DNA of 64,000 nt from Amphiscolops sp. MND2022 (taxonomy: Eukaryota): the NCBI GenBank assembly GCA_964187785.1, contig OZ076409.1, forward strand, positions 11,410,001-11,474,000. The letters run 5' to 3'. The notes beneath the pieces are model-generated. The model did not search any database, was not told the origin of the DNA, and saw only the letters and a program-made list of their open reading frames with translations. Of this stretch, positions 3,001-50,228 are shown in pieces. The position numbers and the translations under genes were made by a program. Positions within the stretch are counted from its first letter, which is position 1; each line of letters starts with the position of its first letter.

Positions 3001-4676
3001 AGCTATTCCGAGACCATTCTAGTCCAAGACACACGCTACCAACATTACTGTCGCCAAATGGACCGACTGTCCGTCAAAGATGAAATCATTACTAGACAGT
3101 ATTTTGATGACACAGGAGCTGTCAAGTACAATCAAGTCCTCTTACCAAAACACCTAGTCCAAGAACTACTTGAATCCCTACATGGCAAAGCTAATAAACA
3201 TCCAGGAATATCCAAAATGCTCATAGAAATTCGCCAAAAATACTACTATCCTGGCATTGCAAAAATTGTTAAAAAATGGGTGCAAGGCTGTGAAACCTGC
3301 ATAAAAGATAAACGAATCCCCATTTCAACCATCACGCCCGAATTGTTAAACTTGCCTGAGTGGGACTTAAGTCCAGAGGATGCAATGCAAATTGATTTGT
3401 TACCAAACCTGCCCCCCAGTGGAGGTTACGAAAATATCATAACTGCAATGAACGTAGTTTCTAGATATCTCTTTGCATATCCTGTTACTGATGCTTCGGC
3501 CACAAACACGGCTAAGGTTATTATAGACATAATGACCAAACATACTTACTTGCCTACCACCTTGATCACTGACAAAGGGACGGCCTTTACGTCCAAATTA
3601 GTTGCTGAAGTAGCTCAAATTTTGGGAATCCAAATAAAATGCGCAACTACAAAACATCCGCAAACAATTGGCAAATTAGAGCGTACTCATGCTAGTCTTA
3701 AAAGAAATCTCAAGATGACCTCAGGGGACTACAGGCGACAGTGGCACAAATACTTGCCATTAGCCGTACTGAATTACAATACGACCTATCACGCCACCCT
3801 GGGATGTGAACCATCTAGAATTTTCCATGGAAGAATCCCATACAACATTCTCGACCACAAACTGGGCCTTAATCCAAACCCGAAGGTCCCACCGACTACA
3901 GATTTTGCAGATGAATTTCAGCGACGCACGCAAATATTACTAGATTCTACAAAGAAAAACATAATGCAGTCATATTTGAAATACAAGGAATATTACGACC
4001 GAAAGGCAAAAGCAGCTCCTTTGAACGAAAACGATTATTGTTTCATATTACAACCTATAGCCGATCACCAAGGATCGAAAATTCCGTTCCGAGAATATCG
4101 ATGGACAGGACCCTATTTTGTGGAAAGAGTCTTACCGAACGAAAACTACATAGTTCGAAAACTTAATTCCAACAAAACACAAATTTTGCACCGCATCAGA
4201 CTACGCAAATACGAACCGCACACCGTCCTACAGGATATCAGGCCAGAAGGAAACCTACAACCGGACGATGAAATTATTATTCCACAGGACGACTTGTATG
4301 TTATTACTTGGGAAACCAATTTTGGAGCATTCCTCGACTCCGATGAAAAAGCCATAACTCCAACACGCCCAAGTGCTGCAGACACTTCTACTGGTCTAGC
4401 GGATGACGCTAGTACGCCAGACGAAAATTTCACCGATGTGGACCTCTGGTCTACTGAGCCACACGAAAAGAACGACTCTGATATGCCTGAACAAACACGT
4501 TCAGACAGCATGTATGAACCCATTGATGATCAACAATCACGCCGAGCGATACTGTCGTGCCCGAAGTATTAGATGATGAAAACGATATGATTGTAGAAAA
4601 TGAAAGCCCTAGGGGAGGGAAATATAACCTACGTCCTAACCCCACCCCCAACTTCACTGATGAATACAGATACTAG
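95..4676 (+). pseudogene. pol: pol of element A (protease, dUTPase-like segment, RT, truncated RNase H, integrase), disrupted
   Basis: LVDTGA protease; YVDD RT; TDAS RNase H start; HGKANKH...CETC, D..D..E and GPYF integrase. Lesions: stop at 856-858, stop and frameshift upstream of 475, in-frame loss of ~150 aa at ~2769 relative to B, and a frameshift near 4545 before the conserved YNLRPNP tail (stop 4674-4676). Confidence 0.93.
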
Positions 4677-7800: not shown

Positions 7801-9220
7801 GTTCATAGGTATACCCTATACTATTGGAGTCGTCATCGCTCCTTAATGCGCCGCTGGTTAAGCTTTCCGCCCTTCCAGTCTCACGATCGGTCATGCTGTC
7901 AGCATCGGAATCGGGAACTGAAGTCCTATTGTAAGGAGCGCTTGAGTTTGATCTGGCTGGCAAGGCAGTGCTTAGATTCAGTCGTCTTGCTCTCTCAATG
8001 AGATCCTCCATCATCGCATATGAAGCTCGGACACTCTCGTCAGCAACAACCCTCAATATGCTCTGCATTTGGTCGGAATTGAGTGCGATAGTAGGGTGTC
8101 CCCTGGGCAGTTCAATGAGACTAGTTTCTTCAAAGTAGTGATTAATGATGGCCCTGCTGGTATTACTTAACCGGTGAACTTCGGGTCCTTTCACGTTCTG
8201 CTCGCATGTCGATTCGTCGGCGTCTTAGCCAGAGGTGATGTCAGTGGGACTAAGGTGCGCCACAGAATGATGAAGTAGAGCGTCTGCAAGTGTCGATCTC
8301 GCTGCCTCGATGGAAGTTGCATTTGATGGTAGTGATAAGTCACTTTCACTCATGTGGCCTTCAAGACACTCAGTCTCAACATCAAACTGGCTAACCTCAG
8401 TTATAAAGACGTCGTCTTCCCCCATCGTGGAATCTTGCCCAGCCCTGTCCTGAGCTTCAGCAACATTAGGTGGACTTGCAGTTTTGACGTTGACAGCCGG
8501 TTTAAGTGGAGAAACTCTACCCCTGCGGAGACGTGGATCGGCAACGTAATTGTGATCTGGATCCAAGAAAGATACTGCTAGAGGCGCAGTACTAGTAGAG
8601 TCTTCATAAGTAGACATGTTCAGTCCAGGAGTGAGCTCCATCGACTCAGACTGACTTCCTTTTGCCCACAGAATAGTGACTTCTTGTACTGGCAGATCAT
8701 ACTCACTTCCGCCAAGTTCTTCCATTCGCCTGGTGAAATAGGTTTGGCAACTCTCTTGGGAACTACCAGACTCTAGTGGGACATCATCTTTATGAGGCTC
8801 ATCGGACTGCCCGGTTGTGGGAGGATCAATCATGTTAGCATCTTCTGCATCATTCGTCTCCATTAACTCTGATTCAAGATTGGCCCCGATCGATAATTGG
8901 ATGCCCACAACTTCCTCTCGCTGGACATTAGCTATTTGCGGCGACGAAGAAGTCAACATCTCTGGCTCGGGCTCATTTGACTTAAGGTCAATTACCAAAT
9001 TTCCCTGGAGGACATCTTCAATCTCAGGAGAATCCAAGATTGGCAGTACGTTTTCTGGCTCACTAGACCTAGCGGGCTCTTGGCCGGCTTGTTGAACTGA
9101 ACTTGGGACATTAGGTTCCAGTCTGTGAGTGCTTTCTCTACAGGATGGTTGGCCATCTTGCTCTTTGTCTAAATGAAAAGAGATAAATTCACGCGGTTCA
9201 CTTCCAGCAAATAAATCCAT
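4859..9220 (-). pseudogene. Antisense spliced accessory gene of element A (zinc finger plus hAT-like body, ~1350 codons, two premature stops)
   Basis: Exons 9220-7019, 6910-6425, 6354-6220, 6154-6073 and 6003-4859 are joined by GT-AG introns of 108, 70, 65 and 69 bp that keep the frame. In-frame stops at 8225-8227 and 7094-7096. CQIC-x16-H-x5-H finger at 7400-7480. Aligns with the antisense gene of B. Confidence 0.82.
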
Positions 9221-10385
9221 CTTGCCGCTATTTTGAAAATCTTCCGGAAGTAAGTTTGAACAATGTTTCCTTATGAAAACATTTCACGATGGAGGAAGTA
9301 CTTTAGCTTAATCTGAACCCTGATCAAGTTTAGCTTAAGCAAACATTTCAAAAAACCAACCTGACGTTACTTCCATGACGGGAGAACGGAAATTTCAGTC
9401 CTGAAAGGAAAAATTTGTCTTGAAGTCTGCTTAGGGAAATAGAGCTGGCTGTAAAGTTTGTCAGGAAGACCTGAAGACGGATGTGCTGTATGGACGATCC
9501 AGTGGAAAGGCTTACCACGGGAGCGGGGAGTTGGATCCATAGAAGAGGATAATGTAACGGAATGACCAATTCAATTGAATGTTAGAATGAAGGTGTGTAT
9601 GGAACAATTCGGGAGATTGATCCGAATAATGAGTTGTACCCAAAGTTCAAAGATTGACTACAAACAGACACAAATATGATGTTATGCATTTTATTGACTC
9701 ACTACACAAGTACTGTACCATTGTCACTAACCGACTCTACATGAAATACTCACCACTTACGACTTACAATAACTATGATTGAAAGGACGTCGTGGCTAAA
9801 ATCACTTTCATTACCTGTTAACTAAAATACAATAGATGCGACCAGATATACTTTGCCTTTCATGTCTGGAACCTGCCAGTGACATTCATGAAATTTATTT
9901 TGTTTCAATTCATTTCATTTCATCATACTCACTTTATTATTTCATGTTGCCAATCATTTAATTATCACCATAATTATTCATGGCTTCTTATTGGTTACTT
10001 CAGCGGTGACGCTCAGCGGACCACCGGTCTTTATTGATCTCAATGTTTACTTGTTGTTATGAATGAATAACACTTTCATTCACCATTACATCTTAATGAA
10101 GTGTTAAACAAATAAACTGAGGGCTACTTGAAAGCGAATTAACTAAAGGCGACTTCCATTCAGGGAAGGAACTAGAATAAGTCTTTCTTAAAATGGAAAA
10201 GTTTGTGATAAATTTAGGAAAATGCGCAAAAATTTTCCTCTCCTAATATTTTCCCGCGACCCTGAGGATTTGGGGTCGGCCAGTCGAGAACAATTCATTC
10301 GATTAAACCTTGTCAGAGCGATACAGTTGTTTCATATCTTCTCGAGATTGCTAAGAAAATACTCTTACAAAGATTCAATATTGAA

Positions 10386-23080: not shown

Positions 23081-23305
23081 CAGCTGAAAAAAGCTTTGAA
23101 AGTAGTTTTTGAAATTTTCGAATAATTCATTGTTTAGAAAAATTAACAAAATAATTTTCGAATTGTCGATGTATGTTCTGTGAGCGTAAGAACCCAGTTC
23201 AAAAATTTTACAAAACTGTCTTCTTAATTCTACTTTAGCTAAAATCTTGATTCTGATTGGGTATTTACTGCCCTTTTTCCATTTGAAAAAAGTTCTGTTG
23301 GCCTT

Positions 23306-26226: not shown

Positions 26227-26347
26227 GATGAAACATCTGGATGAGTAAATTTCAGAACATCTCGAAGTCATCTACACTTCATCTTCTAAGAATAACTAAT
26301 ATTTAAAATGGCAAGCAAGTCACAAATGTTGAATCATGGTGTTAACA

Positions 26348-33488: not shown

Positions 33489-33903
33489 CTATTGGACAAG
33501 CCTAATTGTTGTTATAAACTTATTGTTACGACTATTGTTCGGTGTTGTTTTAGAACTAGTCGCAGTTCGTGTCTTGACTGGGGTGGACGTTCTTGTTACG
33601 GAGATGTTTTCTTGGTCAGAATCAGAATCTTGTATGTTCGAACTAACTGTGCGTTTCTTGTTCGTAGGTGCTATTAATTTGAGCATTTCCTTTTGATTTT
33701 CGGCTAATATCTTTGTTAGATCAGTCATTATTTCTTTCCTCAGAGTTGTTTTCATTTCCTCCAGGTTTTCAAGCTCAAGTCTAGGATTTTTACTAGAACT
33801 AGGTATCAGGTTTTCAATAGAGCCATTTTCATTCAGAGAAACTTCGAAATCTCCTGACACTAACTCAGCTACAGCTTTCCTCTTCTGGCTTCTAGTTGCC
33901 ATT
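33489..33903 (-). CDS. Copy of the Gag N-terminus (MATRSQKRKAV...NNSRN) in the 3' LTR, reading into flanking DNA
   Basis: Nearly identical to the first ~126 aa of ORF 46682-48166 and diverges exactly at the LTR end (33524). Confidence 0.85.
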
Positions 33904-35868
33904 TTGATTGAGAGAGAGAGAGAAAGTATCTTTGGAAAAGTTGAATTCTTCAAAGATTTAAGTTTTCTTTTGGATACGTTATAGTAACGGAACAAAACTG
34001 ATTGTTACAAGGCAAGTCAAAAAATTGTAACTTTACATGTATGTACTACATATTTATACTTTCCCAGCATCATTTGTTCCTCACCTAAAAATTCCTAGGT
34101 ATCACAAAAATCGGGTTTGTTCAACAAAAAGCGCTAATGATTCATATCATTTCAGTGCCGCGTCGTAAAATCAGGCTTCAAAATTCCTAGTTGCGTCAGC
34201 GTCCCGTAAAATTTGTTGAAATCATTTTTGTTCAGGCAATCCCATTTCCTGTTTAAGTCTCAAAATTGCGGTAAAATAAAAGTCTAGCTTGCATTTTCAT
34301 CAGCGTAAGCACGCCGACATGAACAATTAGTCAATTTTCAATTTGGGAAGCTGAGATTCGAAGCAACAGAATGACACTCAAAAATGGTGACGGAATGACG
34401 ACGGAATAAATCAATTTGGAAGCGGATGAAAAACATGGAAATTTGGTATAAAGGAACAAACGATGCTGAAATTATAATCTCAAATTCAAACATATGAATT
34501 ACCTGCTAATGGTATGCTATATTGTTTACATTGAACACAAATTAAGTCCAAACGGGACTTTAACGGGATACAACAAAGATGAGCGCAACATATTCGTAAT
34601 AATAAACGGAAAGCAACTTCAACACTTTGCACAATAATCATGAAATTTATCAAAACATAATCGAAATCTGGTCATTAGCCCGATTGTTATTATCATAAAA
34701 TACAACTGTCACTACTGACTTGAAGCCGATGAATTGACGTTGACCTTACGTCCTATGTTAGGATTATTGTTAAGATATTTTAAGTGCCGTAGTAAATCAA
34801 GTAGATTTGTTCCCTTAAGGAGGAACTAAGTAAGGCGTAATGTCAACGTGTTTTAGTGATTTACCATGATGATACAAATCCAGAACATAAAATTACCATT
34901 GCAATTTTCTATCATTCTTCCTTACAGTACAGTTTTCCTTATGTAAAATCATAACTCTTAAATCTTTCAAATGCATCGATTTAAAGGGCTTCGTTTGGAT
35001 TTCGTTTGAAGCAGTATTTTTCATTTGCGATTTTACAATTCGCTCCGTAGGTGCTACGTATTAAGATTATCTATAGCAGAACAGCGGAATACAATTTTAC
35101 AATCCGCACCGTAAGTGTTCCGTACGTATTGAGATTGCTCATAGCTTAGCTGTCGGACCAAGCGGAGAGAAAGCGGAGTGCGTAGGTGAATTCATTCTCT
35201 TTCTCTTATTCCAATTGGTGTTGCTAGGGGCAACCGAAATTGATTCTATTTGACTTAGCTAAGAATAGTTCTATCAATAGAGTGACGTTATCGGTCCGTA
35301 GAAGCAAAATTCCTAATATTAGCTCAGTAGATTGACGTTGCCATAGCGTTGTAAATATTTGCCTAAATCACTTGGCTGTGCTTTAAGTGAATATTGACAA
35401 CCACTTCATCTCTGGAAAACAATTCCGCTCTATTATTTGTCTGTTCTTTTTCATTTTAGATTGTATGAATTCCGTTGGGATCTCGGAATTGAATTTTATT
35501 TTAATGTTTTCATTTTAGTGTGGACCAGTGGAAAGAATGATCCCAATTATAAATGTTCATTTTAGTGTTTAGATTAGTATGGCAGAAAATCAGAAGATCA
35601 TACCGGAAGTGAAAAATCTTATCACGCACGGAGAATATTTAACCGGAAGTTTTAGCTAAAAATCATTTCTGAAGAGTGTTCCGTAACGTTTACGTTAGGT
35701 TTTGTATTTGGAAAATTATCTGCAATCGATTTAGCTGTACTGTAAGTAGAATTTAGATTAGTTTAAGATTAGTTTAATAGAGTTTACCTCGGCCTTGTCC
35801 TCGGCCTCTTCCAAAGCCGGGTATGCCGCTACAGCAATAGAAATTACGACCGGGAGCGGGTCGTGACA
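33524..35868 (-). repeat. 3' LTR of element B (2345 bp)
   Basis: Near-identical to 47788-50124: about a dozen substitutions plus 2-bp and 6-bp indels, counted by eye. Confidence 0.96.
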
Positions 35869-36679
35869 GGGCTCCTCTTGAACCAAGAGACAAGGGTAGA
35901 GCGTTGCAGTGTGGGATCTCTTTTCCGATAATGATTGGGGGACGTCCGTTGTGTAGCCGCCTGCCGCGAGCAAGACCTCTGCCCTCCTTCATCTTGGCTA
36001 TGAGCTTTTCTTCTTCTTCCATTTCGTGACTTTCCTTTTCTATTTGCGCCCACACAGCAGGACAAAATTCGGGTGGCCCACTTGGCTTGCTCGAGTTGCC
36101 CAATGTACAGTTGCATTTTTCTTTTCCCTCCGTAGGGGGAACGTTTTCGTTTCTGCGGGGTAAGAATGGGGGTTGTCTGGGGCATTCCATTGCTTTCAGG
36201 CCATGGCCACGTCTGGCGGTTGCGGAGAACTGACGGTCTTCTAAATCTAAGTTGTATAGAGCGTCCAGATCTGCTAGCGGGGGTTCATTTAGGTCATTCA
36301 GCCTGACCGTATTCGGTACTCTTTCATTTCCCAGCAAGGGAATTTTACCTTTCGGAGTGGACGCGGTTTCTGCCCGAGAGGACTGTTCCTGCGGGGAAGG
36401 TGGCTCTTCGTAGTAGTCATCTGTGTCCGAATTGGCTGTTGACAGGTTGAACGTGACTCGCCCGAACTTCTTTTTCTTTTTGGGGGTGGGCCCAAATTTC
36501 CTCGGGGAGACATCGGAACCAAAAGAAGACTCTAAGTCTGCGTCGCTCCCGCGGTAAACTTCGACCGAGGAGTCACTTAGAGTTCCTACCGTATTCAGGG
36601 GCAGCGTTTTCAGCGGAGTGCTCGTGCGATTATTTTCCTCATCAGAAGAGATGTCAATAACCAAGCTGTATCCGTTCAT
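35774..36679 (-). CDS. 3' sense accessory ORF of element B (301 aa, low complexity) crossing the PPT into U3
   Basis: Intact ATG-to-stop ORF. N-terminal LVIDISSDEE, basic PKKKKK stretch and RG-rich tail. The last ~31 codons lie inside the LTR. Confidence 0.75.
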   Translation of the reverse strand: MNGYSLVIDISSDEENNRTSTPLKTLPLNTVGTLSDSSVEVYRGSDADLESSFGSDVSPRKFGPTPKKKKKFGRVTFNLSTANSDTDDYYEEPPSPQEQSSRAETASTPKGKIPLLGNERVPNTVRLNDLNEPPLADLDALYNLDLEDRQFSATARRGHGLKAMECPRQPPFLPRRNENVPPTEGKEKCNCTLGNSSKPSGPPEFCPAVWAQIEKESHEMEEEEKLIAKMKEGRGLARGRRLHNGRPPIIIGKEIPHCNALPLSLGSRGALSRPAPGRNFYCCSGIPGFGRGRGQGRGKLY

Positions 36680-37272
36680 CTTGTTGAGAATTTCAGATTG
36701 TTTTATTTCAAGGATTTTCCTTGTTGGTGACGATTGTGCGTTAAGAAAATTGTGCTGGTCAAGCTTTATGAAGATTGGACGACAAATGACCGTTTCAAAT
36801 TCTTTCTTACATAATTTTTATCGAAATTCTATTGGTCGGTTTTTCCGTTTTCGTTCCGGTGCGTCCCGAGTTAAGAAAAGAGATTTCTTTCATCTGCGCA
36901 GTGATTGGTTGAAAACTCATAGAAAATCTTCTAATTTTATCTTCTTTCTTCTTTCTGTTTAATGGCGTAATGACGTCATTGATTTTTCTCGAATGTTCTA
37001 CGTTCATATTCCGTAATTTTCAAAATGCCATCTTTCCTTCAGAGCTTCTTGATGAATCTTTTATTCATCCGTATGCTTTTTGGAACGTTTTGTCCCGTCA
37101 CTGCCGTAATAGGCTTTCACTGAAGTTGAAGTTTAGATGATTTTTCAATTACGTAGGGATGACGTTGATGATTTCTTTTAGGGTGTCAACTTTTACTCGA
37201 CGTGATTTCTATTTTGTTGATTTCTTTTTCCTTTTTAGATTTCGTTGGCAATCGCTATTGTCACTTTTGGTC
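36680..37272. promoter_or_regulatory. Putative bidirectional internal promoter region
   Basis: Lies between two divergent start codons (36679 minus, 37273 plus). Contains palindromic ATGACGTCAT (36970-36979) and several ATTGG/CCAAT motifs. Confidence 0.5.
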
Positions 37273-40200
37273 ATGAGTGAAAACGCTGTTCCTCCTGATG
37301 TCTCTGGTTTTCTCAGTGGGCATGAGACTAACTTGTGCTTCACTGAAGACGACGCTTATCCCTCGGAAACGGAAGTTATAGTTACTTCTTCAGGTTGGTA
37401 AAAATCTTTCTGACTTCTTGGGTAGTAGGGCTCTTTTTGTTTTGGTGATCAGCCTTTTATAGTCTTACCCGTATCTCTGACGCGTCTGAACCAGATCTTG
37501 ATTTTCAGTAACTCAACCTGGAACTTCCTTGACTGTTGTTTCCGCTACTACTACGGGTGGGACATCTGCTACCCCCATGGGGTTATCTTCGCTGGGTTCT
37601 TCTTTGAAGCTGCCTCCAGTGACTTCAGTGCTGGTTCCTGAGCAGTCCATTAATGATGTTTTGACAACATTGCTTCCTGCTAATCCTACTACTGGATCTT
37701 CAGTAGTTCCGGGTGTTGATGTCTCTTCTGCAGCTCCTCCTGGTTTGTCCGAAGTAGTTCCGGGCGTTGATGTTTCCTCTGCAGTTCCTCCTGATTTGTC
37801 CGAAGTAGTTCCGGGCGATTTTGATGTCAGTGTGGAGCCTCATGAAGGTGAGGCTGCTACCACCTCCACAGGAGAAGAAAGAACTGTAGAAGAGGAGGAT
37901 ACTCCAGTCTGTAAGTTGTGTGTTTGTGTGATTGGGTTCTTTTGTTGTTGTTGTTTTTTTTGTCAACTTGTTGGTTTCTGTTTTCCATTTCTTATCACTC
38001 TTGTGTTGTAGGTTCGAAAGTGTTTCCATTCCGGAAGACGAGCGTGAAGTTCATGGAATCGTCTCCGAAATTGAAAAGGACAACACGGGTCGCAGATGTT
38101 GATGCTACCTTGAGTGGTTGGAGTGGGGCAGAAGACGTATCATTCTCGGCAACTCCCGTGTCACCCGAAATGATGCAGCTGGGTCGTCAGTTGGCTTCGA
38201 CGGTAGAGGAGCGTACTGCTCGGCAGATACAGACAGGTGAGTTGTTTATTTGTGATTGGCCTCTTGTTGGAATGGTGTGTGGTACGTTGCAGCGACGTTT
38301 GTTTTGGGTGTTACATTTGTTTGATTGGTTTTGTGTGTGTTATAGGCTTCAGCGAGCTTGTTGAGAAAGTGGAGAGTCACTTTGAGCGCCCGAAGGCGAA
38401 GAAGTATAGCAGTCGGAAGTTGTTGCATCGTCGGATGCTAGCGCTGAATCCATTGTTTGCTGACTTCGTGACGGGTTCGGAGTGTGGAAGTGCAAAGGTC
38501 TTCTATTGTCGCATTTGTAGAAGAGACGTAAAGATGGGCTCAAAAGGGGCAGCTGAGTTTGTTCGTCATTTTGAGTCGAAGAAGCACTGGGAGCAGGACG
38601 TCACATATCGTGTGCACATGGGTCTCCCTGTGTACAACAAGCTAATGGAGCCCATGGAGCTGAGTGCCCGACAGAGGGACGATTTCCTTTCACGGCCCTT
38701 CGTGGATTTGGGCGGGGAGTTTCCTTTCCCTGAGGACATGTTGCCCAAACATTCAAAGGCTTCTTCGAAGGTGCCACTGATGACTCTCGTTTCAAGTTTG
38801 AGTGATGTGTTGCGCAGTGGCGGGGATTTCACGTTGGTTCGTCGTCTGTGGGGCTACTTCCTTGCGTCTCTGGGCGGTCGGGATCCGGAATTCTCTCTAC
38901 AGTGGAGTCGCTCAGAGACTGTGGTTAGTATTTTTGTGTGTTTGGTACATTTAGTGGGTGGTGTTCTGTTATGTGGTATTTGCTCCTTTTATTGTAAGCC
39001 GCTAGGTGACCGTAAAGATGTACTGTTGTGTGATTTCGCTCTCCGTTGTTGTTTGTTTCCTCTTCCTTCTTCTTTTCATTTGGGTGTTTGTTTCAGTCCG
39101 TGTTGTGTCAAGGCCTTGTTCCCCGAGTGCTGCGCGTGATGTTCAAGAACATTGGGCAATTTCGGGAGTATTCTCTGCAGTATGAAAAGGATACGGAGGT
39201 AGAACGTTGTTTCGTTCTCTTCTGGGAAGACAACTATTTGAAGAAGGTATGTGTCGGTTGTGAGTCGCTGCTGCAGCATGTGCCAAAACCAGAGTTGCTG
39301 CCCTTGGCACGAGTCGTCTGTAGTTTACCGTCTGGGAAGTTGCCTTTGGCTATAGTCGGCGGAAGTCCGTCCTTAGTCCGTGTCTTGAGTGACACTCGCG
39401 CTGACAGTCGTGTCTTTGTGTCTTATCAGCCCTTCACTAGTGAGATGTTGATTCGTTGTATTCGGCAAGCCTATCAGGACGTGTTCAGTATGATGGAGGT
39501 GACTTCCCTGGTGGATTATACCGTGTTACGTTTGAAAACTGCCATTTACGAGGACTGGATGGAGGAGAGAGCCATACTGTGTAAAAGTGTTCGTCAGGGC
39601 CACGTGGAATTCGCTGATTTGCGGGAAGTACTGTCAGATCTGATAGAGTTATGGCCTTCAATACGTCCATTTGTTCGATGTACTGGTAACCCTGAGGCTA
39701 AGGACAAGGCTGAACGGGTGAGTGAAAATTGTTCCTTCCGTCCGGTGTAGTTGCGGTGTTACTTTTTGTCATATCATGTTGTGTATTTTAGCTACAGGGG
39801 ATTGATTGGTTACTAACTGCCGATAATATGATAACGTATCGGTTCAGTCTGCTGAAAGTGATCCTTGATACTTGTGAGTGTTTTCTTTTGAGTTGATAGA
39901 TTGTTTTTTGACTGTTGTTGACTGCGTATTTGTTCGTATTAGTGGCTGTTCTTTCCTGTCTTTCTCTTTTGTGTATTGGGGTAGGGTTGTTCTTCTGTTG
40001 TATACGAATCATGGTGTATGTTTTAGTCTACAACAATTGCCCCAGATTTCGACAGGATCAGGCGGATTATGCTTTCCGCGCTTATGGCGAGTTTTGCAAT
40101 TTTGTGTATTGCCTGCTCTTGAAAACTCGCAGCACCAGTGGTCTTCCTGAAATTCATGCTTGGGAGTGTTACATGGATGTCGTGAAGGCCCGGGATTTCG

Positions 40201-41327
40201 CTGTTGTTCCGTGTGATTCTTTCCTCTCTAATCATGACTTGGGGAAACAGTTATCCGCAGGCAAGACGAAAGAGTATGTGGCTTTCCGACTTCATTGTCG
40301 TCAGTTCGTTGATCGTCTGATCATCATTTTACTGGAAAGCACATATGCACGTTCTGTTATTGCTAAGGGGATGTGTAGTTTCTGCCCCGAGTTGATGCTG
40401 GAAGGCGATGATGTGGCCGTTTTCAGTCTATTTGCGGATTTGTGCCGTATTCTTGTATCCTGTGGTTCGCTGAGTGTGGACGAAAGTAGTGCAGCTTTGG
40501 AGGAACAGGCAAGTTTCATTGTGGAAAAGCGTGGGTATCATTCTTCGTCAGGGCAGTCTGCTGGTGACATCGTGAATGTGGTGCCGTACCTGCTCCGTGA
40601 TGTTGGGTTCTTGTCACGACCACATTTGCTCCGGGTATTCAAGTTGTGTTGTCTTGTCGCGGGAGTGTCTGTCTCACGCTATCCTGCCGTGTCTCTGGAT
40701 TTATCTGAGTTTACGTTGAGTGTTGCAGACTTTCAGAGCTGTGTGCAACTGGTGCAGTCTTATATATTGAGCGAAGGGTATTCGCATCAATCCTTCTTCA
40801 GTGATCAGACTCTTATAGTTGTGAAGAAGGCCATCGCAGATGCTGGTAGATTCTTTGGAGCGTCTGACTTCAGTATGTGGACAGATTTTTGTAGGGAGGA
40901 TGTAGATGCCTTTGTTGTGAAGTATAGTGCCTTATTTACTACTTTCCTCGCAGAGCGCCGGAAGAGCTTCGATGCCCGTTATGTGGAGTACAATAATTCA
41001 AATCGGATGTCCCGTCTATCTGATAGTGGCGATACAGCTGGTTCGAGTGGTTCCTTGAGTTCTGTGATCCAGCGGAAGAGGCAAGATACAGGTCCTCCAA
41101 GTGGTGTTTCTGTGAAATCTGGTGGCAGTAAGTCAAGTAATGGCGGAACGAAGTCGGAGTCGAAGTCTGCTACTATTTCGTTTAAAAGGAAGCAGCAGAA
41201 AAACGTCGGTGGTGATTCGGGTGGTGGAGCTGGTTCATCTAAAGGAAGAAAGAAAGCTGTGCGAGATGCTGATGATGATGATTCTGGTAGTCAGCCGAAG
41301 TCTAAGAAAGTGTCCAAAAACTGTTGA
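37273..41327 (+). CDS. Seven-exon antisense accessory gene of element B (1109 aa; zinc finger plus hAT-transposase-like body)
   Basis: Exons 37273-37393, 37509-37910, 38012-38236, 38346-38923, 39097-39717, 39792-39873 and 40027-41327. All six introns are GT...AG and T-rich, with phases 1,1,1,0,0,1, giving one uninterrupted 3330-nt frame. CRIC-x16-H-x5-H finger at 38507-38587. Confidence 0.85.
37703..37820 (+). repeat. 51-bp coding tandem repeat (VVPGVDVSSA(A/V)PP(G/D)LSE, ~2.3 copies)
   Basis: Units start at 37703, 37754 and 37805, within exon 2 of the antisense gene. Confidence 0.85.
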
Positions 41328-41475
41328 TGATTTGGTTTCTTGTTGATGTAGTTATATTTTCCTTTTAATTGTCTGCCAATCTTTGTTGTATTAGTTTTTG
41401 AGTATATAGTTTTAGAGAATCTTGAGAAAATTGACGTAGCCATTCCGGTTCGGTTTGGTTTGTTGAGTTTTTTAG

Positions 41476-44400
41476 CTAGTCTTGAGTTGGACGTGAGTCC
41501 TCCGTAGTAACTGAGTCAAGCATTCGAAAATCAGGATTGACATTGGGTTTCGGATTAGGTCGTAAGTTGTATCTTCCCACTTTTCTAGGGTTATATCCAA
41601 CGACGATAGGCGGCAATTCGGGTGTTTTGGGAGGGCTGTGTATCGGTGGTGGGGTCAAAATATATGGGTTATCGCTGACATCTAGGTCAAATGACGTTAT
41701 ATTGTCGGAAGGTGTTTTGTCTTCTGCAGTATTTTCATTTGTGGCTGTTTGAGCCACGTCGTTTTCCATTGTAGGTGCGTCTGTGGTTATTTTAACCACG
41801 TCATTTTCCACTATACTTTCTTTGGTGGTTGTTTTAACCACATCATTTCCCGTTGTAATTTCGTCGTTTCCTGTTATGTCTTCGATTTCTGTAAGTGTAG
41901 CTTCTTTGGCGGCGTTTTCCGTATTGTTTCCGAACAGAACTTCTCCGAATTCGGTTTCCCAAGCTTGCGCGTACCAATCATTGTGGGTTGTTTTAACCTC
42001 TTGGTCTGGAAGGTAATCTTCCCTTCTGACTGTTACGTCAGGTACTCGCTGATTGGGCGCATATAGCCTTAGGCGAATTCTGTGGAGGGTTTGAGTATAC
42101 CTAGTTCTCGTGCGGCGTACGACGTAGTTGTTGTTCGAGAGTACTTTGACTACTATGTAGGGTCCAGTCCAAATGCAATCTTTAAAGGCGAATTTCATCG
42201 ACTGGTTGTCTGCCCTCGGATTAAGGACGTAGCAGTAGTCGTTGACTTTGAGTGGCGTTGCTGTCGCTTTCTTGTCATAGTACTGTTTGTACTTTAAGTA
42301 GGACTGCATTAGATTTTCTTTGGCGGCTTGGTGTATTTCGGATATTTGCTTCTGTAGTTGATCAGTCAGTTCTTCGTTGTTATCTTTTTTCCATTCAGGT
42401 TTCAATCCGAGTTTTATGTCTAGGATGTTGTACGGAATGCGTCCGTGAAATACTGTTGTGGGTTCACAACCTAGGCTTTCATGATAGCTCGTATTGTAGT
42501 TCATGACCGCGATCTGGACATATTTATGCCACATAGAGCGTCGTTCTCCCGTTGATATCTTTAGGGAGGTTTTCAAAGAGGCATGAGTCCTTTCTAGGAT
42601 GCCAATTGTTTGAGCGTGTTTCGTCGATGCGTGGCTTATCCGTATATCCAGTGTTTGTGTTATTTGATTGACTACTTCTGACCTGAATTGTGATCCTTTA
42701 TCCGTTAGAATGACGGTCGGCAGGTAGCAGTGTCGTGTCATGACGTCTATTATGCATCGTGCGACTGTTTTGGCTGTCATGTCCTGTGTCGGGTAAGCGA
42801 AAAGGTACCGCGAAAAAACATCCATCATCGTTATGATGTGTTGGTATCCATTTGAGGAAGGTAGATTTGGTAGAATGTCTACTTCTAGGCAGTCTTCTGG
42901 TCCCATTGTGAATTCAGTGTTGCTTAGCATTTTGGGACGTATTTGTCTTGTGTCAATTCTTTTATTGGCAATGCAGTCTTGACAGCTGGTTACCCAAGCT
43001 CTGATTTTACGTGCAAGACCCGGGAAGTAGTATTTCGCTCTGCATTCTTGTATCATTTTTGTGATTCCTGGGTGTTTATTTGTTTTCCCATGTAGAGTGG
43101 CCAAGAGTTCTGGGACTAGGTGTTTCGGAATTATAATTTGATTATGGGTGACTGATCCGTCTTCTCCGTAGTATTTCCGCATCAGAACTCCATTTTTCAT
43201 TATGATTCTTTCTTCATGGCGTAATAGGTTTCGTCCTCGTGGTTCAGTTTTGAGAAGGTGTTTGTCATATTCTTCGTGTGAGATCCGTTGTTTCAGTGCT
43301 TTGAGGAGAGGGTCTGCATCTTGCTTGTTTCTGATCCGTGCATTTTCTTTGATTGCACCGAAGGAGTAGACTGCGGAGTTGAGTGGTATCTTGATGACTT
43401 CGGTTACTTTTGTTGATAGTTCTCTCTCATGTTCGTCTAGGGCGCGTCGTTTGCTGAGTGCTTTTCGGGCAAAGATTTCTTGTTCAGATTCATCTTCTTC
43501 ATCAGGTAGGAAGAAAAGTTGTTCTTCGTCAGCTACATCTGATGATTGTAGATTGACCTCAATTGGGGACGTTAGGATGTCGTCTCGTAGTTTAAGTTGT
43601 ACCTTTTCTTTCGGTGTAAGTTCGAGTCTTGAGAGAAAATCTGCTGCTGTGTTTTGGGAGCCTGCTACGTGCATAATTCGAAACTTGAACTGTAATACAT
43701 AGTCGCAGGCATTCCAGAGTGCAGGGGGTGTCGTTTTGGTCTGGAAGAATCTCGTTACTGAGCGGTTGTCTGTTAAGACCAGGGTTGGAATTGTTGCTTC
43801 CCATAGTATGTGACTGTATTCGAGGAATGCATGATAGATTGCTAAGAATTCCTTGCAGTAGATAGACATTTTCAGTTGTGCAGGTGAAAAAACTCGTGAT
43901 CCGAACGCTACTGGTGCGAAGGTTTTTCGTTTGGAGAGTATTTTGCGTTCATCGTTCTCCTCAATCATGAGGGCGTAGCCTGACGCACGAAAGCTTGCAT
44001 CCGTCATTAGGACGTATTGTTTTCCTGCTATGGGCTGTCGGAGCGCAAGTCCACAAGCTTCCGCTAAACTGGCGTTAATTTCCTTAAAGTTATCGACAAG
44101 TTCTTCTGACATTCTGATCTTGGAGTTTGCTTTAAGAAGTTCGTACATGCCGATGAGCTTTTCTGACAAGCGCGGTATGTAGTTGCGGTAATAGTTAACA
44201 AAGCCAATGTATTTTTGAACCTGTTTTTTGGATTTGGGGAAGCGGACTTTGGAGAGGAAATTTTTGACTTTTTGATCTTGCGGGGCTACTCCGTCGGGGG
44301 TGATGGTTCGGCCAAGGAATTCGATTTGGGTTACTCCGAAATGACATTTTTCGATAGTTAGTTTTAGTCCTGCTTTCCTAATACATTTGAAGACTGCTCT

Positions 44401-46761
44401 GATGTTTTTTATGAGCTGTTCCGTTGTGTTTGCGGCAATGCCAATGTCATCTACGTATTGTGCACATTGATCGGCTTTGATGACTGAGTCCAGATACTCA
44501 CGCATGAAGCTCGAAAAGGCTGATAGGGCTCTGCTTAGTCCTTGTGCCAGGCGACGATAGGCGAACGTCCTACTAGCGAAATTAAAAGCAAGTAACTCTA
44601 CTGACCTTTGGTCTGCCATTTGAAGGCAGTGATACGCCTGGGAGCAGTCAAGTTTGCAGAATAGTTTTTTCCCTGCTAGGTGTTGTGCCGCATCTGAGAG
44701 GGTGCTGACAGGGTGGTTATTGTTGATGTAGTCATCTGCTATGAGTGCGTTGATTTTGCGCAGATCCACCAGTAGTCTCAGTTTGCCGTTGGGTTTCCGT
44801 TGTGCAAATATAGGACTGGCGTACTTGGAGAAGGGGAGTGTCGTGATGATGCCGTATTTGTGCATCAGTGCCAGTTCCACTGTTAGGTCTTCTTTGAGGT
44901 TGATCGGGACAGGTAAGCTCTGTGTGTAGACTGGTTTGTCGTCCTGTGGTGTTAGGCTGACTTTGAACTGTGTATTCATCCCGATATCTAGTCGGTGTCG
45001 AGCAAAGATGTCATTGAATTCAACAATGGTGTCCTCAAGGTTTTCACGGTCTTTGCCCGTAATTAGTGAGTCTGTCCATTTGAACATTGATAGAAATTTG
45101 TTGCGAGAGTCTTCGTTTTCGGTTGGGTCAAGTTTTTCTAGTTCGGCAAGGTCCCGCAGTTCTTTCAGGATTCGCTTTTGTATGGGCGAATGTTCTTGTT
45201 CGTTGCCTGGGTGTTCTGGGGTCGGGAACCAGAATTTTTCTTCATTGTCTTCTGGCCGTTCTACTTGCATTAGTGCGTTGATGTACGTGACCACATCGTC
45301 ATGGTCATTGAGGAGATTCAGGGCGGCAATGTCAACTGGACGGATCATCTTCGTTTCTTCGGGTTTCAGGATTTGCAGTTCGGCCATTTTGGTGTCGTTG
45401 GCTATTGTGTATGGAAAATCCGTGGTGTTGGCGATTTTAATTGGGAGCTTTTTATCTCTAGCTGTTGTAATCGCTGGGGCTACTATTACTTTCGCGCATT
45501 CATCGAATTGTGGTAGGGGTTGTATTGTGCCCGTTATTGGGTGCTCAATACTCACAGGGATTGTTGCGTAGATGACTCGGGTAGAGTGCGCTGGGATTGT
45601 ATGTTTGGCTTCGGTCTTTATCGTGATGGGTTTGGGATTGCACTTTTGTCTTTCGTCTGTGAGCGCCATCGTGATTTGGATCTTGGGAAAGTTGATGGTT
45701 CCCTGTGCCGTGTCAAGGATTGCGGCATGCTTTCGTAGAAACGCTAATCCAATTATGGGGAATGACGTTTGATTCATGATGATGAATGTTTCTTCAAAAG
45801 TGTAATCCCCTATTTTGAAGCGTAGAGTGTACGTGGCAAGTGGTTGTTCTAGTTCGGCATTGGCGTATTGCACTTTGAAAGGGGGTGGAGGTGCTTTGTT
45901 AACAATGCATTGACTCGCATTTTGGTGGAGTTTTTCAGCATCCCTTTCGCTAATAGCATTAATGTACGCACCTGAGTCGACTAAGGCTTCGATTTTGACA
46001 GTGTTGAATTCGATTGGTAAGAAGAGCATTTTCTTCTTGAGGGCAATTGCAGACATTAACGGGATGTAGTCGTCTTCCTTGTCGTGCTGGATGAATTCTT
46101 TGATGACATCTAGATCTTCTGGTAGTGTTGGGTGACATTCCGTTATTTCTTCGTCTTCAGCGGCTATTGCTGTGGCTGGCGCGGTTTGTGGTGGTGACGA
46201 GAGCGAAGCGGTGTTTTCTCGCTGTTCTCTTGCTTGTCGTGACCATATTGTTTTGTCTTCAATGCCAATGATGTTTTCGGCATCGATCGGTGTGGACGTG
46301 ATGGTGACGGGTGCTGTTGGGGACGGTGTTGTTCTTTTCAGGATCGGTGACGGCGGTGACGGTAGGTTTGTGATCTTCGTAGCTTGAGCTTGAGGGTTTG
46401 AGACTTGGATTTTGAAGGATAGTTTATTTGTATCATAGATGGTTGGTTCATCCCAAGGGTCACATCTGTAGTCTCTGTCATATATATAAATTCGGTCTGT
46501 TTTTGATTCCGGCAACGGTCTTTTGAGTGTCGCATAGTTATCGGGCGATTCTGTTATCCACTGGGGTAGTGGCGTTGGATCTTCTGGGTGTCTGGCATTA
46601 TGCCTGAGTATCATGCCTACGTTCCAACGGCGTTGCCAGTCTTGAGTTGGTTCTTCATTACATTCGGTTAAAAAATCTTCTTCATACCTGTTTGGGGGGT
46701 CCTCTATCGTGTACGCCCTCGCGTCTACTTTTTCCCCAAATCGTAGGCGCGGCGACTTTAA
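41476..46761 (-). CDS. pol: pol of element B (protease, dUTPase-like segment, RT, RNase H, integrase), uninterrupted
   Basis: LVDSGA; YVDD; TDAS...E...TDN...ADFLSR; HGKTNKH...CQDC; D..D..E; GPY. The frame stays open from the slippery site at 46761 through the 1712-aa ORF. Confidence 0.96.
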   Translation of the reverse strand, partial: LKSPRLRFGEKVDARAYTIEDPPNRYEEDFLTECNEEPTQDWQRRWNVGMILRHNARHPEDPTPLPQWITESPDNYATLKRPLPESKTDRIYIYDRDYRCDPWDEPTIYDTNKLSFKIQVSNPQAQATKITNLPSPPSPILKRTTPSPTAPVTITSTPIDAENIIGIEDKTIWSRQAREQRENTASLSSPPQTAPATAIAAEDEEITECHPTLPEDLDVIKEFIQHDKEDDYIPLMSAIALKKKMLFLPIEFNTVKIEALVDSGAYINAISERDAEKLHQNASQCIVNKAPPPPFKVQYANAELEQPLATYTLRFKIGDYTFEETFIIMNQTSFPIIGLAFLRKHAAILDTAQGTINFPKIQITMALTDERQKCNPKPITIKTEAKHTIPAHSTRVIYATIPVSIEHPITGTIQPLPQFDECAKVIVAPAITTARDKKLPIKIANTTDFPYTIANDTKMAELQILKPEETKMIRPVDIAALNLLNDHDDVVTYINALMQVERPEDNEEKFWFPTPEHPGNEQEHSPIQKRILKELRDLAELEKLDPTENEDSRNKFLSMFKWTDSLITGKDRENLEDTIVEFNDIFARHRLDIGMNTQFKVSLTPQDDKPVYTQSLPVPINLKEDLTVELALMHKYGIITTLPFSKYASPIFAQRKPNGKLRLLVDLRKINALIADDYINNNHPVSTLSDAAQHLAGKKLFCKLDCSQAYHCLQMADQRSVELLAFNFASRTFAYRRLAQGLSRALSAFSSFMREYLDSVIKADQCAQYVDDIGIAANTTEQLIKNIRAVFKCIRKAGLKLTIEKCHFGVTQIEFLGRTITPDGVAPQDQKVKNFLSKVRFPKSKKQVQKYIGFVNYYRNYIPRLSEKLIGMYELLKANSKIRMSEELVDNFKEINASLAEACGLALRQPIAGKQYVLMTDASFRASGYALMIEENDERKILSKRKTFAPVAFGSRVFSPAQLKMSIYCKEFLAIYHAFLEYSHILWEATIPTLVLTDNRSVTRFFQTKTTPPALWNACDYVLQFKFRIMHVAGSQNTAADFLSRLELTPKEKVQLKLRDDILTSPIEVNLQSSDVADEEQLFFLPDEEDESEQEIFARKALSKRRALDEHERELSTKVTEVIKIPLNSAVYSFGAIKENARIRNKQDADPLLKALKQRISHEEYDKHLLKTEPRGRNLLRHEERIIMKNGVLMRKYYGEDGSVTHNQIIIPKHLVPELLATLHGKTNKHPGITKMIQECRAKYYFPGLARKIRAWVTSCQDCIANKRIDTRQIRPKMLSNTEFTMGPEDCLEVDILPNLPSSNGYQHIITMMDVFSRYLFAYPTQDMTAKTVARCIIDVMTRHCYLPTVILTDKGSQFRSEVVNQITQTLDIRISHASTKHAQTIGILERTHASLKTSLKISTGERRSMWHKYVQIAVMNYNTSYHESLGCEPTTVFHGRIPYNILDIKLGLKPEWKKDNNEELTDQLQKQISEIHQAAKENLMQSYLKYKQYYDKKATATPLKVNDYCYVLNPRADNQSMKFAFKDCIWTGPYIVVKVLSNNNYVVRRTRTRYTQTLHRIRLRLYAPNQRVPDVTVRREDYLPDQEVKTTHNDWYAQAWETEFGEVLFGNNTENAAKEATLTEIEDITGNDEITTGNDVVKTTTKESIVENDVVKITTDAPTMENDVAQTATNENTAEDKTPSDNITSFDLDVSDNPYILTPPPIHSPPKTPELPPIVVGYNPRKVGRYNLRPNPKPNVNPDFRMLDSVTTEDSRPTQD

Positions 46762-48166
46762 TTTTTTGGCTGAGAGGACGTGGTAGGTACAGGTTGTTCA
46801 CTGATTTTGTTGGTTGGGATGGTGAATTCTCGTTTCTTCTTTCTGGGGTCATTTGCTGCGTTGGCTCCGTTCCAACAATTCTCAGTTTTGTGCATCTTGC
46901 CACATGTATCACACTTGGGTTTGGGTACTTCGTTTTGGGCTGGGTCTTTGTGTTTGTTTTGGCTGTATTATAACGTTCTCGTTGAAGTTTGCGACACTGT
47001 GCTTTGTAGTGGCCATATTTGCCACAGTGAAAACAATGGCCTCGTTGTTGTTGGTCTTTTTTATGGTCCGTCACTACAGCGTCCACTGTGTTGAGTGGGA
47101 CTAGGATTGTTTCATCGGGCGCACCTAGTCCGTTTAATCTCATCTCCCTCTCAAGATGTAAAACTATATCATTGTAGGGTTTATCTTCCAAATATGCTCT
47201 GTTGAGGATCTTTTTGACGTGATCCGGCATTTTGGCGTAGATTGCTTTATCAATGAATTTTTGTGCTTCTGAGCCGAAGGCTTCTTTTGCAGTTTTTTGC
47301 AGGGTGTCAAGGAACTCATGGAGTTTCTGTTTAGTGGGGTCAAAATGCAGGGCGTCCCACTCACATCTCGCTTTAGCGGATGATTGGAAATCACCAAAGC
47401 GGCGTTTAAAGGCCGTTATGACTTCTTCTAGGTTGTCTTTTTTGGTGTCATCTAGATTACAATACGCTTGTAGTGCGTTTCCTCGTAGGAGTGAATGGAA
47501 GTAGTTGATCTTTTGTATCTCGGTTAGGTGAGGATACATTTTGATATTGTTTCGGAATAGGTCCTCAAAAAGTTCAAACTTTTCGGACTTACCATCAAAA
47601 ACTGGGAGCGAAGCAGTGAGTGCTTTCGGCATTGGAAGTAGATTGGTTGATGGGAATGTCTGTGGTTGTGGTGCGAACAGTATCTTTGACGTGGATGGTC
47701 GGTCTTTTGGTTGTTCGCTGAGTATACGTTGTGCTTTTGGTCTTTTGGTGGGTTGGTTAGTGGAATCATTGAGGACTCCTGTCACCATGTTACGACTATT
47801 GTTCGGTGTTGTTTTAGAACTAGTCGCAGTTCGTGTCTTGACTGGGGTGGACGTTCTTGTTACGGAGATGTTTTCTTGGTCAGAATCAGAATCTTGTATG
47901 TTCGAACTAACTGTGCGTTTCTTGTTCGTAGGTGCCATTAATTTGAGCATTTCCTTTTGATTTTCGGCTAATATCTTTGTTAGATCAGTCATTATTTCTT
48001 TCCTCAGAGTTGTTTTCATTTCCTCCAGGTTTTCAAGCTCAAGTCTAGGATTTTTACTAGAACTAGGTATCAGGTTTTCAAAAGAGCCATTTTCATTCAG
48101 AGAAACTTCGAAATCTCCTGACACTAACTCAGCTACAGCTTTCCTCTTCTGGCTTCTAGTTGCCAT
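46758..48166 (-). CDS. gag: gag of element B (starts in the 5' LTR; one apparent frameshift between the two zinc knuckles)
   Basis: Capsid-like LPVFDG...KINYFHSLLRGNA and knuckle CFHCGKYGHYKAQC. The second knuckle CDTCGKMHKTENC (46875-46913) and the PKN* ending are in a shifted frame. Confidence 0.9.
46761..46767 (-). promoter_or_regulatory. -1 ribosomal frameshift heptamer A-AAA-AAT
   Basis: Immediately before the gag TAA. A -1 shift enters the pol frame. Followed by a potential stem CGCGcCTAC...GTAGaCGCG. Confidence 0.7.
47775..47787 (-). promoter_or_regulatory. Primer-binding site of element B (TGGTGACAGGAGT), possibly tRNA-Leu
   Basis: TGG directly follows the LTR terminal CA. The complement ACTCCTGTCACCA resembles tRNA-Leu 3' ends (from recall). 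It lies within the gag coding frame. Confidence 0.7.
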
Positions 48167-50124
48167 TTTGATTGAGAGAGAGAGAAAGTATCTTTGGAAA
48201 AATTGAGTTCTTCAAAGATTTAAGTTTTCTTTTGGATACGTTATAGTAACGGAACAAAACTGATTGTTACAAGGCAAGTCAAAAAATTGTAACTTTACAT
48301 GTATGTACTACATATTTATACTTTCCCAGCATCATTTGTTCCTCACCTAAAAATTCCTAGGTATCACAAAAATCGGGTTTGTTCAACAAAAAGCGCTAAT
48401 GATTCATATCATTTCAGTCCCGCGTCGTAAAATCAGGCTTCAAAATTCCTAGTTGCGTCAGCGTCCCGTAAAATTTGTTGAAATCATTTTTGTTCAGGCA
48501 ATTCCATTTCCTGTTTAAGTCTCAAAATTGCGGTAAAATAAAAGTCTAGCTTGCATTTTCATCAGCGTAAGCACGCCGGCATGAACAATTAGTCAATTTT
48601 CAATTTGGGAAGCTGAGATTCGAAGCAACAGAATGACACTCAAAAATGGTGACGGAATGACGACGGAATAAATCAATTTGGAAGCGGAGGAAAAACATGG
48701 AAATTTGGTATAAAGGAACAAACGATGCTGAAATTATAATCTCAAATTCAAACATATGAATTACCTGCTAATGGTATGCTATATTGTTTACATTGAACAC
48801 AAATTAAGTCCAAACGGGACTTTAACGGGATACAACAAAGATGAGCGCAACATATTCGTAATAATAAACGGAAAGCAACTTCAACTCTTTGCACAATAAT
48901 CATGAAATTTATCAAAACATAATCGAAATCTGGTCATTAGCCCGATTGTTATTATCATAAAATACAACTGTCACTACTGACTTGAAGCCGATGAATTGAC
49001 GTTGACCTTACGTCCTATGTTAGGATTATTGTTAAGATATTTTAAGTGCCGTAGTAAATCAAGTAGATTTGTTCCCTTAAGGAGGAACTAAGTAAGGCGT
49101 AATGTCAACGTGTTTTAGTGATTTACCATGATGATACAAATCCAGAACATAAAATTACCATTGCAATTTTCTATCATTCTTCCTTACAGTACAGTTTTCC
49201 TTATGTAAAATCATAACTCTTAAATCTTTCAAATGCATCGATTTAAAGGGCTTCGTTTGGATTTCGTTTGAAGCAGTATTTTTCATTTGCGATTTTACAA
49301 TTCGCTCCGTAGGTGCTACGTATTAAGATTATCTATAGCAGAACAGCGGAATACAATTTTACAATCCGCACCGTAAGTGTTCCGTACGTATTGAGATTGC
49401 TCATAGCTTAGCTGTCGGACCAAGCGGAGAGCAAGCGGAGTGCGTAGGTGAAATCATTCTCTTTCTCTTATTCCAATTGGTGTTGCTAGGGGCAACCGAA
49501 ATTGATTCTATTAGCTAAGAATAGTTCTATCAATAGAGTGACGTTATCGGTCCGTAGAAGCAAAATTCCTAATATTAGCTCAGTAGATTGACGTTGCCAT
49601 AGCGTTGTAAATATTTGCCTAAATCACTTGGCTGTGCTTTAAGTGAATATTGACAACCACTTCATCTCTGGAAAACAATTCCGCTCTATTATTTGTCTGT
49701 TCTTTTTCATTTTAGATTGTATGAATTCCGTTGGGATCTCGGAATTGAATTTTATTTTAATGTTTTCATTTTAGTGTGGACCAGTGGAAAGAATGATCCC
49801 AATTATAAATGTTCATTTTAGTGTTTAGATTAGTATGGCAGAAAATCAGAAGATCATACCGGAAGTGAAAAATCTTATCACGCACGGAGAATATTTAACC
49901 GGAAGTTTTAGCTAAAAATCATTTCTGAAGAGTGTTCCGTAACGTTTACGTTAGGTTTTGTATTTGGAAAATTATCTGCAATCGATTTAGCTGTACTGTA
50001 AGTAGAATTTAGATTAGTTTAAGATTAGTTTAATAGAGTTTACCTCGGCCTTGTCCTCGGCCTCTTCCAAAGCCGGGTATGCCGCTACAGCAATAGAAAT
50101 TACGACCGGGAGCGGGTCGTGACA
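47788..50124 (-). repeat. 5' LTR of element B (2337 bp)
   Basis: Direct repeat of 33524-35868. TATAAAT on the minus strand at 48314-48320, ~150 nt upstream of the gag ATG at 48166. Confidence 0.96.
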
Positions 50125-50228
50125 CTTATTAAATAGATCTTTTTGGTGGTTAGTGAGCCATACGACCTGGGCGGCCCTTCTCGGCAATTCAGCATTGGCT
50201 CTTTGGCACCCTTCATACACCTGTTTCA

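Follow-up and report, generated by a model that had tools for sequence, protein, structure and literature searches.

Where do the genes that some long terminal repeat (LTR) retrotransposons carry on their opposite strand come from, and what might they do for the element? The question is raised by a 64,000-nucleotide (nt) stretch of Amphiscolops sp. MND2022 (GenBank assembly GCA_964187785.1, contig OZ076409.1, positions 11,410,001 to 11,474,000), the whole of which is called the window here and is numbered from its first letter. It holds an intact Ty3/gypsy LTR retrotransposon, element A (33524-50124, minus strand), which carries an antisense gene on the plus strand between pol and its 3' LTR. 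The first-pass annotation had read its product as a hAT transposase, catalytically degenerate and borne by an LTR retrotransposon in antisense orientation, and that reading is now supported by three independent signals that are collinear with hAT proteins, if individually modest. The gene and the family to which it belongs are solid; its hAT ancestry is likely.

A predicted spliced antisense gene

The antisense gene is predicted to consist of seven exons:

37273..37393, plus strand: predicted exon 1, beginning with ATG; acidic
37509..37910, plus strand: predicted exon 2, acidic, rich in S, T and P, likely disordered
38012..38236, plus strand: predicted exon 3, from splice signals and frame
38346..38923, plus strand: predicted exon 4, with a CCHH finger (38501-38587) and a helical region
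39097..39717, plus strand: predicted exon 5, with a predicted RNase H-like core without catalytic aspartates, after which a helical insertion begins
39792..39873, plus strand: predicted exon 6, an 82-nt microexon
40027..41327, plus strand: predicted exon 7, with a helical domain that runs collinear to the insertion and C-terminal region of hAT, then a basic tail rich in K, S and G

These seven GT-AG-bounded segments join in phase to give 3330 nt, or 1109 codons with the sole stop at the end, and the six predicted GT-AG introns measure 74-173 nt with a T fraction of 0.41-0.57. The frame used is free of stops in six of the seven exons and has only the terminal stop in exon 7, while the remaining plus-strand frames contain 1-31 stops per exon. 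That the exon model is not a product of chance is argued by the relatives of the protein, because these lose identity past the predicted donors and keep the residue that the donor GT encodes. Past the exon 4 donor, identity among relatives falls from 0.63 to 0.33 (91 of 114 homologues used), past that of exon 5 it goes from 0.57 to 0.29 (33 of 44 used), and the valine encoded by the donor GT is kept in 63/68 and 29/30 sequences, respectively. The corresponding drop on the acceptor side is weak (0.35 versus 0.38, 0.47 versus 0.59 and 0.22 versus 0.30). Exon 6, which had been overlooked in the first-pass annotation, is matched in the relatives P0072 and P0054; predicted exons 1-3 are drawn solely from splice signals and reading frame. 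Transcription and splicing of the gene are predictions from sequence. On element A's own strand the intron ends read CT...AC, and since by established splicing rules such ends on the element RNA are not spliced, the introns would be expected to outlast reverse transcription.

The first 250 or so residues of the predicted protein form an acidic, S/T-rich region, after which come the finger, the transposase scaffold and the basic tail. The hAT-like protein had been placed at 38346..41000; its motifs do lie there, but the gene is longer (37273-41327), and that span corresponds to exons 4-7. The proposed finger is present as C54-x2-C57-x16-H74-x5-H80 of the exon starting at 38346 (38501-38587), the strand pattern YSLQYE..CFVLFW..KKVCV is found at 39169-39255, and RPHLLRVFKLCCL at 40617-40655. 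The strand pattern and RPHLLRVFKLCCL had each been reported as one of a pair, of which the first member belongs to element A and the second to another element, element B (4859-8224, minus strand).

Element B is a decayed, related gypsy element with a second copy of the antisense gene:

247..4572, plus strand: pol of element B, identified by Pfam, 57% and 43% identical to the pol of element A in two blocks
4859..9283, minus strand: antisense gene of element B, with predicted exons ending at 7019, then 6910-6425, 6354-6220, 6154-6073 and 6003-4859

This second gene has in-frame stops at 8225-8227 and 7094-7096, and the two antisense proteins are only 19-26% identical. Three introns are nevertheless common to both genes at identical positions and phases, with one additional intron in element B, and the exon lengths agree exactly (621 = 486 + 135 nt for exon 5, 82 = 82 nt for exon 6), as do the phases of these exons. 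Place and orientation are the same in both elements, the distance to the stop codon of pol being 148 and 286 nt, and the antisense gene lies between pol and the 3' LTR in 2/2 elements of this lineage in the window.

Evidence for descent from a hAT transposase

The first of the three signals is the finger in exon 4. The earlier reading had set it beside the BED-type finger of hAT transposases, and it does resemble hAT fingers, but it receives no Pfam zf-BED score. Profile alignment with the finger of the hAT subgroup that exon 7 also matches gives pairwise E-values of 0.019 (local) and 0.0043 (semi-global; z 5.9), and a hAT N-terminal profile places the two finger open reading frames (ORFs) of the window first and second among its 693 ORFs (E ~0.1). 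The four zinc ligands are kept in 59/62, 59/61, 57/62 and 58/62 sequences, and two residues beside them are nearly fixed (R73 in 60/62, W81 in 58/62). In Atlas, the exon 4 rows with a family assignment are GTF2IRD2/zf-C2H2_12, FAM200-ZBED5 and zf-BED clusters at 0.88-0.90, which was taken as a lead only.

The second signal comes from exon 5, the structure models being of single exons throughout. Its model shows the strand-helix order b1-b2-b3-a-b4-a-b5-a, which is that of RNase H topology, at a mean predicted local distance difference test score (pLDDT) of 48.5. In a Foldseek search of 350,542 chains, ranks 1-10 are all Hermes, with E-values of 0.0075-0.093 and a template modelling (TM) score of ~0.19. 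VIA-align superposes this low-confidence model on DDE integrase cores with Z 2.2-2.9 and a root-mean-square deviation of 3.6-5.2 over ~70 aligned residues.

The third signal comes from exon 7. A profile of this exon ranks a Pfam-confirmed hAT transposase at the top of 630 ORFs (E 3.6e-4); the second match in that search (E 0.037) is not a hAT frame and was discarded. Profile-profile comparison with hAT gives pairwise E-values of 1.5e-4 and then 5.7e-5 (probability 66%), and the semi-global alignment spans 244 columns, residues 1-265 against hAT positions 94-354 (pairwise E 5.9e-5), with a score of 26.2 compared to 4.7 for the reversed profile and at most 4.6 in 20 shuffles (z ~20). This match covers the helical insertion and C-terminal region of hAT at a level below Pfam PF05699 detection. 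The reciprocal hAT profile, at E<0.1, recovers 22/150 exon 7 homologues in the forward direction and 0/150 reversed, and directly upstream of the exon 7 alignment the end of exon 5 also falls into register, though weakly (E 0.089).

Taken together, these three modest, collinear signals from sequence and modelling make it very probable that the antisense protein descends from a hAT DNA transposase. The reference hATs were gathered from two contaminated metagenome bins (G001 and G002) and checked with Pfam; hAT motif and subgroup names guided the searches, all counts being computed. The bins themselves are nominally bacterial, and their loci (L013, L019, L024-L084) give 70 and 8 matches to PF05699, a eukaryotic hAT domain, likely through host contamination.

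Several results weigh against hAT descent. No Pfam hAT or BED family was found for 97, 62 and 39 aligned members. The exon 7 model is good (pLDDT 86.7), and in Foldseek it has no PDB match below E 0.65, with Hermes absent among the matches listed, and no BFVD match below E 0.46. The exon 5 model that does reach Hermes is poor by the same measures (pLDDT 48.5, TM 0.19), and the exon 5 core gives no significant alignment with hAT profiles (best E 0.089), for which reason the two aspartate sites discussed below were placed by eye from predicted strands. In one comparison the match was to a single hAT subgroup (1/5 masters); the best hAT master was picked after topping the exon 7 profile search; and the hhalign E-values are pairwise, from ~30 comparisons with a hAT-enriched reference set. 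Lastly, the window's own exon 7 ORF is absent from the six reciprocal-search matches.

How much should be made of blank library searches? A phmmer search with a true Buster-type hAT, run as a control, likewise recovers no PDB chain at E 10, and so blank library and PDB searches are to be expected between hAT subgroups. Other searches were also blank: the exon profiles find nothing below E 0.1 among PDB sequences, Atlas on exon 7 reaches 0.89 at best, with low recognition and no lead, and a single Buster-type hAT (L019) matches none of the three exon alignments. VIA-align gives a best Z of 3.9 (wide) and 2.9 (second look) for the exon 5 model and of 5.0 and 4.6 for the exon 7 model, Hermes being unlisted in both cases, an absence that does not exclude the family. 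The Foldseek check proposed with the earlier reading is divided, with Hermes found by the low-confidence exon 5 model and no match for exon 7; no unrelated family was matched with confidence by Pfam or Foldseek. Motif scans for hAT found none in viral contigs and none in plasmids, and an ORF of the window at 31377-31769 that reaches E 0.013 with a hAT profile was taken as chance, having no tblastn support.

Absent catalytic motifs and transposon ends

If the protein is a former hAT transposase, is it still an enzyme? The reference hATs keep their motif residues in 84-98% of rows (D 27/32, D 35/36, C 33/37, H 31/37, W 34/36, E 39/40). At the inferred aspartate sites, whose register was set from predicted strands and motif likeness, the family instead has E in 28/29 sequences (Q in copy B) and G in 37/38. 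No conserved Glu was found at exon 7 positions 208-223, where it reaches at most 10/76; the hAT ERxFS segment aligns to a gap in the family, with low column confidence; and the CxxH and RW motifs do not occur at the expected places in the exon 5 family alignment. Judged from these alignments, the DDE triad, CxxH, RW and ERxFS are absent and catalysis is lost family-wide. The earlier remark that the first catalytic Asp and the S...ER.FS motif were not evident thus extends, on inspection of the DDE positions, to the whole family. As a separate observation, Glu occupies the inferred first catalytic position, exon 5 residue 30 (39184-39186), in 28/29 sequences, so that the A-like group still has an acidic residue there.

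The ends of a hAT transposon were sought as a pair of terminal inverted repeats (TIRs) with an 8-bp duplication, allowing at most one mismatch, and 0/36 candidate pairs qualified around the gene of element A and 0/102 around that of element B. Because both the catalytic motifs and the transposon ends are absent, the antisense gene is not classed as a hAT transposon.

A diverse family and its linkage to LTR elements

Exon 7 has relatives in at least 425 clusters (50% identity) at E <=0.001 among 1.84 billion representatives, and the ten examined of the 150 listed are all unnamed pieces from ENA or Logan assemblies. The exon 5 search accepted 44/184 candidates, 50-97% identical among those 44, and the exon 4 search 114/161. 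No longer, full-length exon 7 relatives were found among 3310 candidates, and no related DNA in prokaryote genomes, viral contigs or bins G001 and G002; two 25-residue metagenome matches were taken as chance.

Direct linkage of the gene to an LTR element comes from the two copies, A and B. In clusters at 90% identity, whose sizes are members and not copy numbers, the gag of element A has 101, pol 640, an extra sense ORF of the element 64 and exon 7 59. The similar sizes for gag, sense ORF and exon 7 speak for the antisense gene being part of the element. On a size-based comparison, 4/14 listed members of the sense ORF share a contig tag with the 15 listed for exon 7, where 3.6 would be expected if the two were fully linked. 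For gag and pol, 0/14 listed members each share a tag with those 15, which counts against a general linkage, albeit in small samples. Separately, gag P0375, from the 90% cluster of the element A gag, and the exon 7 homologue P0007, 42% identical to that of element A, share contig tag 425402; possibly the accessory cassette was swapped between families, or the pairing is a coincidence.

What might the antisense protein do?

From this analysis, the product of a predicted spliced accessory gene, likely hAT-derived and without catalytic motifs, would most likely be nuclear, bind DNA and maintain expression of the element that carries it, a proposal that we hold tentatively and at somewhat below an even chance. 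Very probably, a hAT transposase was captured once, long ago, and its transposon ends were lost; beyond that, at about even odds, the antisense gene would be transcribed from an internal promoter. The basic tail may bring the protein into the nucleus, the finger and transposase scaffold may bind the LTR or the internal promoter, and the acidic stretch of 250 residues at the N-terminus, or else the helical domain, may activate transcription or hold off host silencing. DNA binding by hAT BED fingers, including to subterminal repeats, is described in PMC10368747. Counting against the proposal, no repeated words resembling binding sites stand out in the LTR or the promoter region. A broader version, which we rate as evenly balanced, is domestication across the lineage: a dead, intron-bearing hAT protein would be the standard antisense gene and would supply the retroelement with a factor that recognises specific sequences and serves anti-silencing or targeting, its hundreds of diverged variants tracking host conflict.

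Could the hAT-derived dead transposase act at integration instead, by binding the ends of the cDNA or chosen chromatin, tethering integrase or aiding nuclear import? Holding DNA ends and target DNA is what a transposase scaffold is made for (PMC10368747), the RNase H-like part is conserved in its 44 matches though catalysis has gone, the tail is basic, and the Pfam scan reported no chromodomain on either integrase. An antisense transcript of its own and an N-terminus both acidic and disordered would, however, suit a regulator better, and the gene diverges far faster than pol (19-26% versus 43-57% identity), so that we regard a role at integration as unlikely.

Fast divergence and the large number of clusters would suit host conflict, and with it a decoy, a protein that titrates host silencing factors or ZBED-like repressors and for which DNA binding is secondary. 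For accessory proteins of transposable elements in Arabidopsis, faster evolution and a larger number of predicted host partners are described (PMC13547354). Against a decoy stand the four zinc ligands, R73 and W81, all nearly fixed, and we consider it improbable.

It is also conceivable that the accessory gene is real but of non-hAT descent, its likeness to hAT coming from a generic C2H2 finger, an alpha/beta fold and helical patterns. The blank Pfam scans, the good exon 7 model without a Foldseek match and the negative exon 5 profile comparisons all fit such an origin. Three methods, however, point to hAT in successive exons, in hAT order and register, the reversed and shuffled controls are clean, and a true Buster-type hAT fares no better against PDB; we think this origin distinctly improbable.

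Nested insertions are common, copy B has two stops, and antisense RNA can regulate LTR elements (PMC7264820), yet a decaying hAT passenger in the retrotransposon, or a function of the antisense RNA alone, is very improbable given that no TIR with an 8-bp duplication was found, that 1109 codons stay open in a copy whose catalytic motifs were already lost family-wide, that exon lengths are exact across 80% protein divergence, and that conservation is limited to exons.

Comparison with known systems

The predicted protein shares with hAT transposases such as Hermes the order of finger, helical region, predicted RNase H-like core, helical insertion and C-terminal helix, as well as the finger spacing and a collinear profile match over exon 7; the nearest subgroup among the references (L035/L072, L075, L077) is positive for PF05699 and DUF4371. 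It differs from them in lacking the catalytic motifs and in adding the acidic N-terminus and basic tail, and the gene differs from hAT transposons in moving only within an LTR element, without TIRs or an 8-bp duplication. Hosts have reportedly domesticated hAT genes too, among them ZBED1/ZBED6, GTF2IRD2 and FAM200, for regulatory DNA binding. The scheme proposed for the antisense gene would parallel the ZBED proteins, which regulate host genes, in that a hAT transposase has likely become a regulatory DNA-binding protein, as is predicted here; unlike those fixed genes, it is multicopy and sits inside a young LTR element (the 59-member cluster of exon 7).

Plant and fungal gypsy elements are known to have antisense ORFs, mostly of unknown origin, in the interval from pol to the 3' LTR (PMC7264820, PMC11963269). 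The plant Ty3/gypsy examples include Retand TRP28 (PF04195), Grande gene23 and RIRE2 (PMC11963269, PMC7264820), and, according to a 2020 review, plant antisense ORFs are without clear similarity to other transposable elements (PMC7264820). The gene described here is like them in its antisense place between pol and the 3' LTR, in being kept across a lineage and in its proposed nuclear regulatory role, and unlike them in having a class II transposase as its likely source and six predicted introns. Pfam scans of the element and family proteins gave no match to TRP28 (PF04195) or to the plant mobile domain (PMD). The latter is found in gypsy elements and Mutator-like elements (MULEs), with an anti-silencing role proposed and movement from host genes to MULEs described (PMC5418596), and the ORF3s of bdelloid LTR elements are esterases, exonucleases or env-like (PMC5408684). 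In these sources, too, extra domains are common to different element classes, but unlike the present case they are not transposases.

The available text of PMC6431247, PMC8220671 and PMC13547354 contains no LTR element with a hAT-derived gene, and our literature search, with subscription journals and Repbase Reports mostly outside its scope and prior annotation therefore possible, listed no report of one. For the antisense accessory genes of LTR retrotransposons, whose origin is mostly unknown according to PMC7264820, a traceable source in a DNA transposase is offered. It would illustrate how mobile elements of one class can take over the core enzyme of another class, much as hosts have done in the case of the ZBED genes, and the antisense placement would let a multi-intron gene ride through reverse transcription. 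Since one copy is young and intact and the family is large and diverged, the function is testable.

The carrier retrotransposon

The carrier of the antisense gene is an intact Ty3/gypsy LTR retrotransposon with TG...CA LTRs, a short target-site duplication, gag, and a pol with protease, reverse transcriptase, RNase H and integrase in that order:

33519..33523 and 50125-50129: target-site duplication CTTAT (5 bp), flanking element A on left and right
33524..35868, minus strand: 3' LTR, 2345 nt, TG...CA
35774..36679, minus strand: extra sense ORF, 301 amino acids, containing the basic stretch PKKKKK and oriented head-to-head to the antisense gene
36680..37272, no strand assigned: likely divergent promoter region that separates the sense ORF from the antisense gene, with TGACGTCA at 36971 and three ATTGG boxes
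41476..46797, minus strand: pol, 1773 open codons, with protease, reverse transcriptase, RNase H and integrase, identified by Pfam
46682..48166, minus strand: gag, 494 amino acids, with a CCHC knuckle and its ATG (48166) within the 5' LTR
47770..47787, minus strand: likely primer-binding site, beginning TGG and adjoining the 5' LTR
47788..50124, minus strand: 5' LTR, pairing with 33524-35868

The LTR pair is 99.19% identical (11 mismatches and 2 gaps), and this low divergence indicates a recent insertion. The region 36680-37272 was read as a promoter from a motif scan made without a control, and should be taken as a candidate. No match was found among the Pfam families looked for in the sense ORF, which extends into the 3' LTR and has 64 members in its 90% cluster; frames of element B at 10266-11198 lie in a comparable place, with no similarity to it detected. 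The gag of element A starts ~380 nt inside the 5' LTR and its frame crosses the primer-binding site. Two related frames resembling this gag start, at 12045-12719 and 54419-55012 (both plus strand), appear to be LTR remnants belonging to the family of element B.

Within element B (859-4572, plus strand), residues 83-167, which lie between protease and reverse transcriptase, score weakly as dUTPase-like (E 0.028); such a placement is described in some rotifer, fungal and planarian elements (PMC6431247, PMC5408684). A third, unrelated gypsy element (14667-19678, minus strand) has 168-nt LTRs that are 99% identical, a broken pol and no sign of an antisense gene. Families of short dispersed or inverted repeats that resemble miniature inverted-repeat transposable elements lie at 21300-28100, 50200-50700, 55500, 56600-58100 and 62700-63200, and arrays of a 15-nt tandem repeat at 25619-26225.

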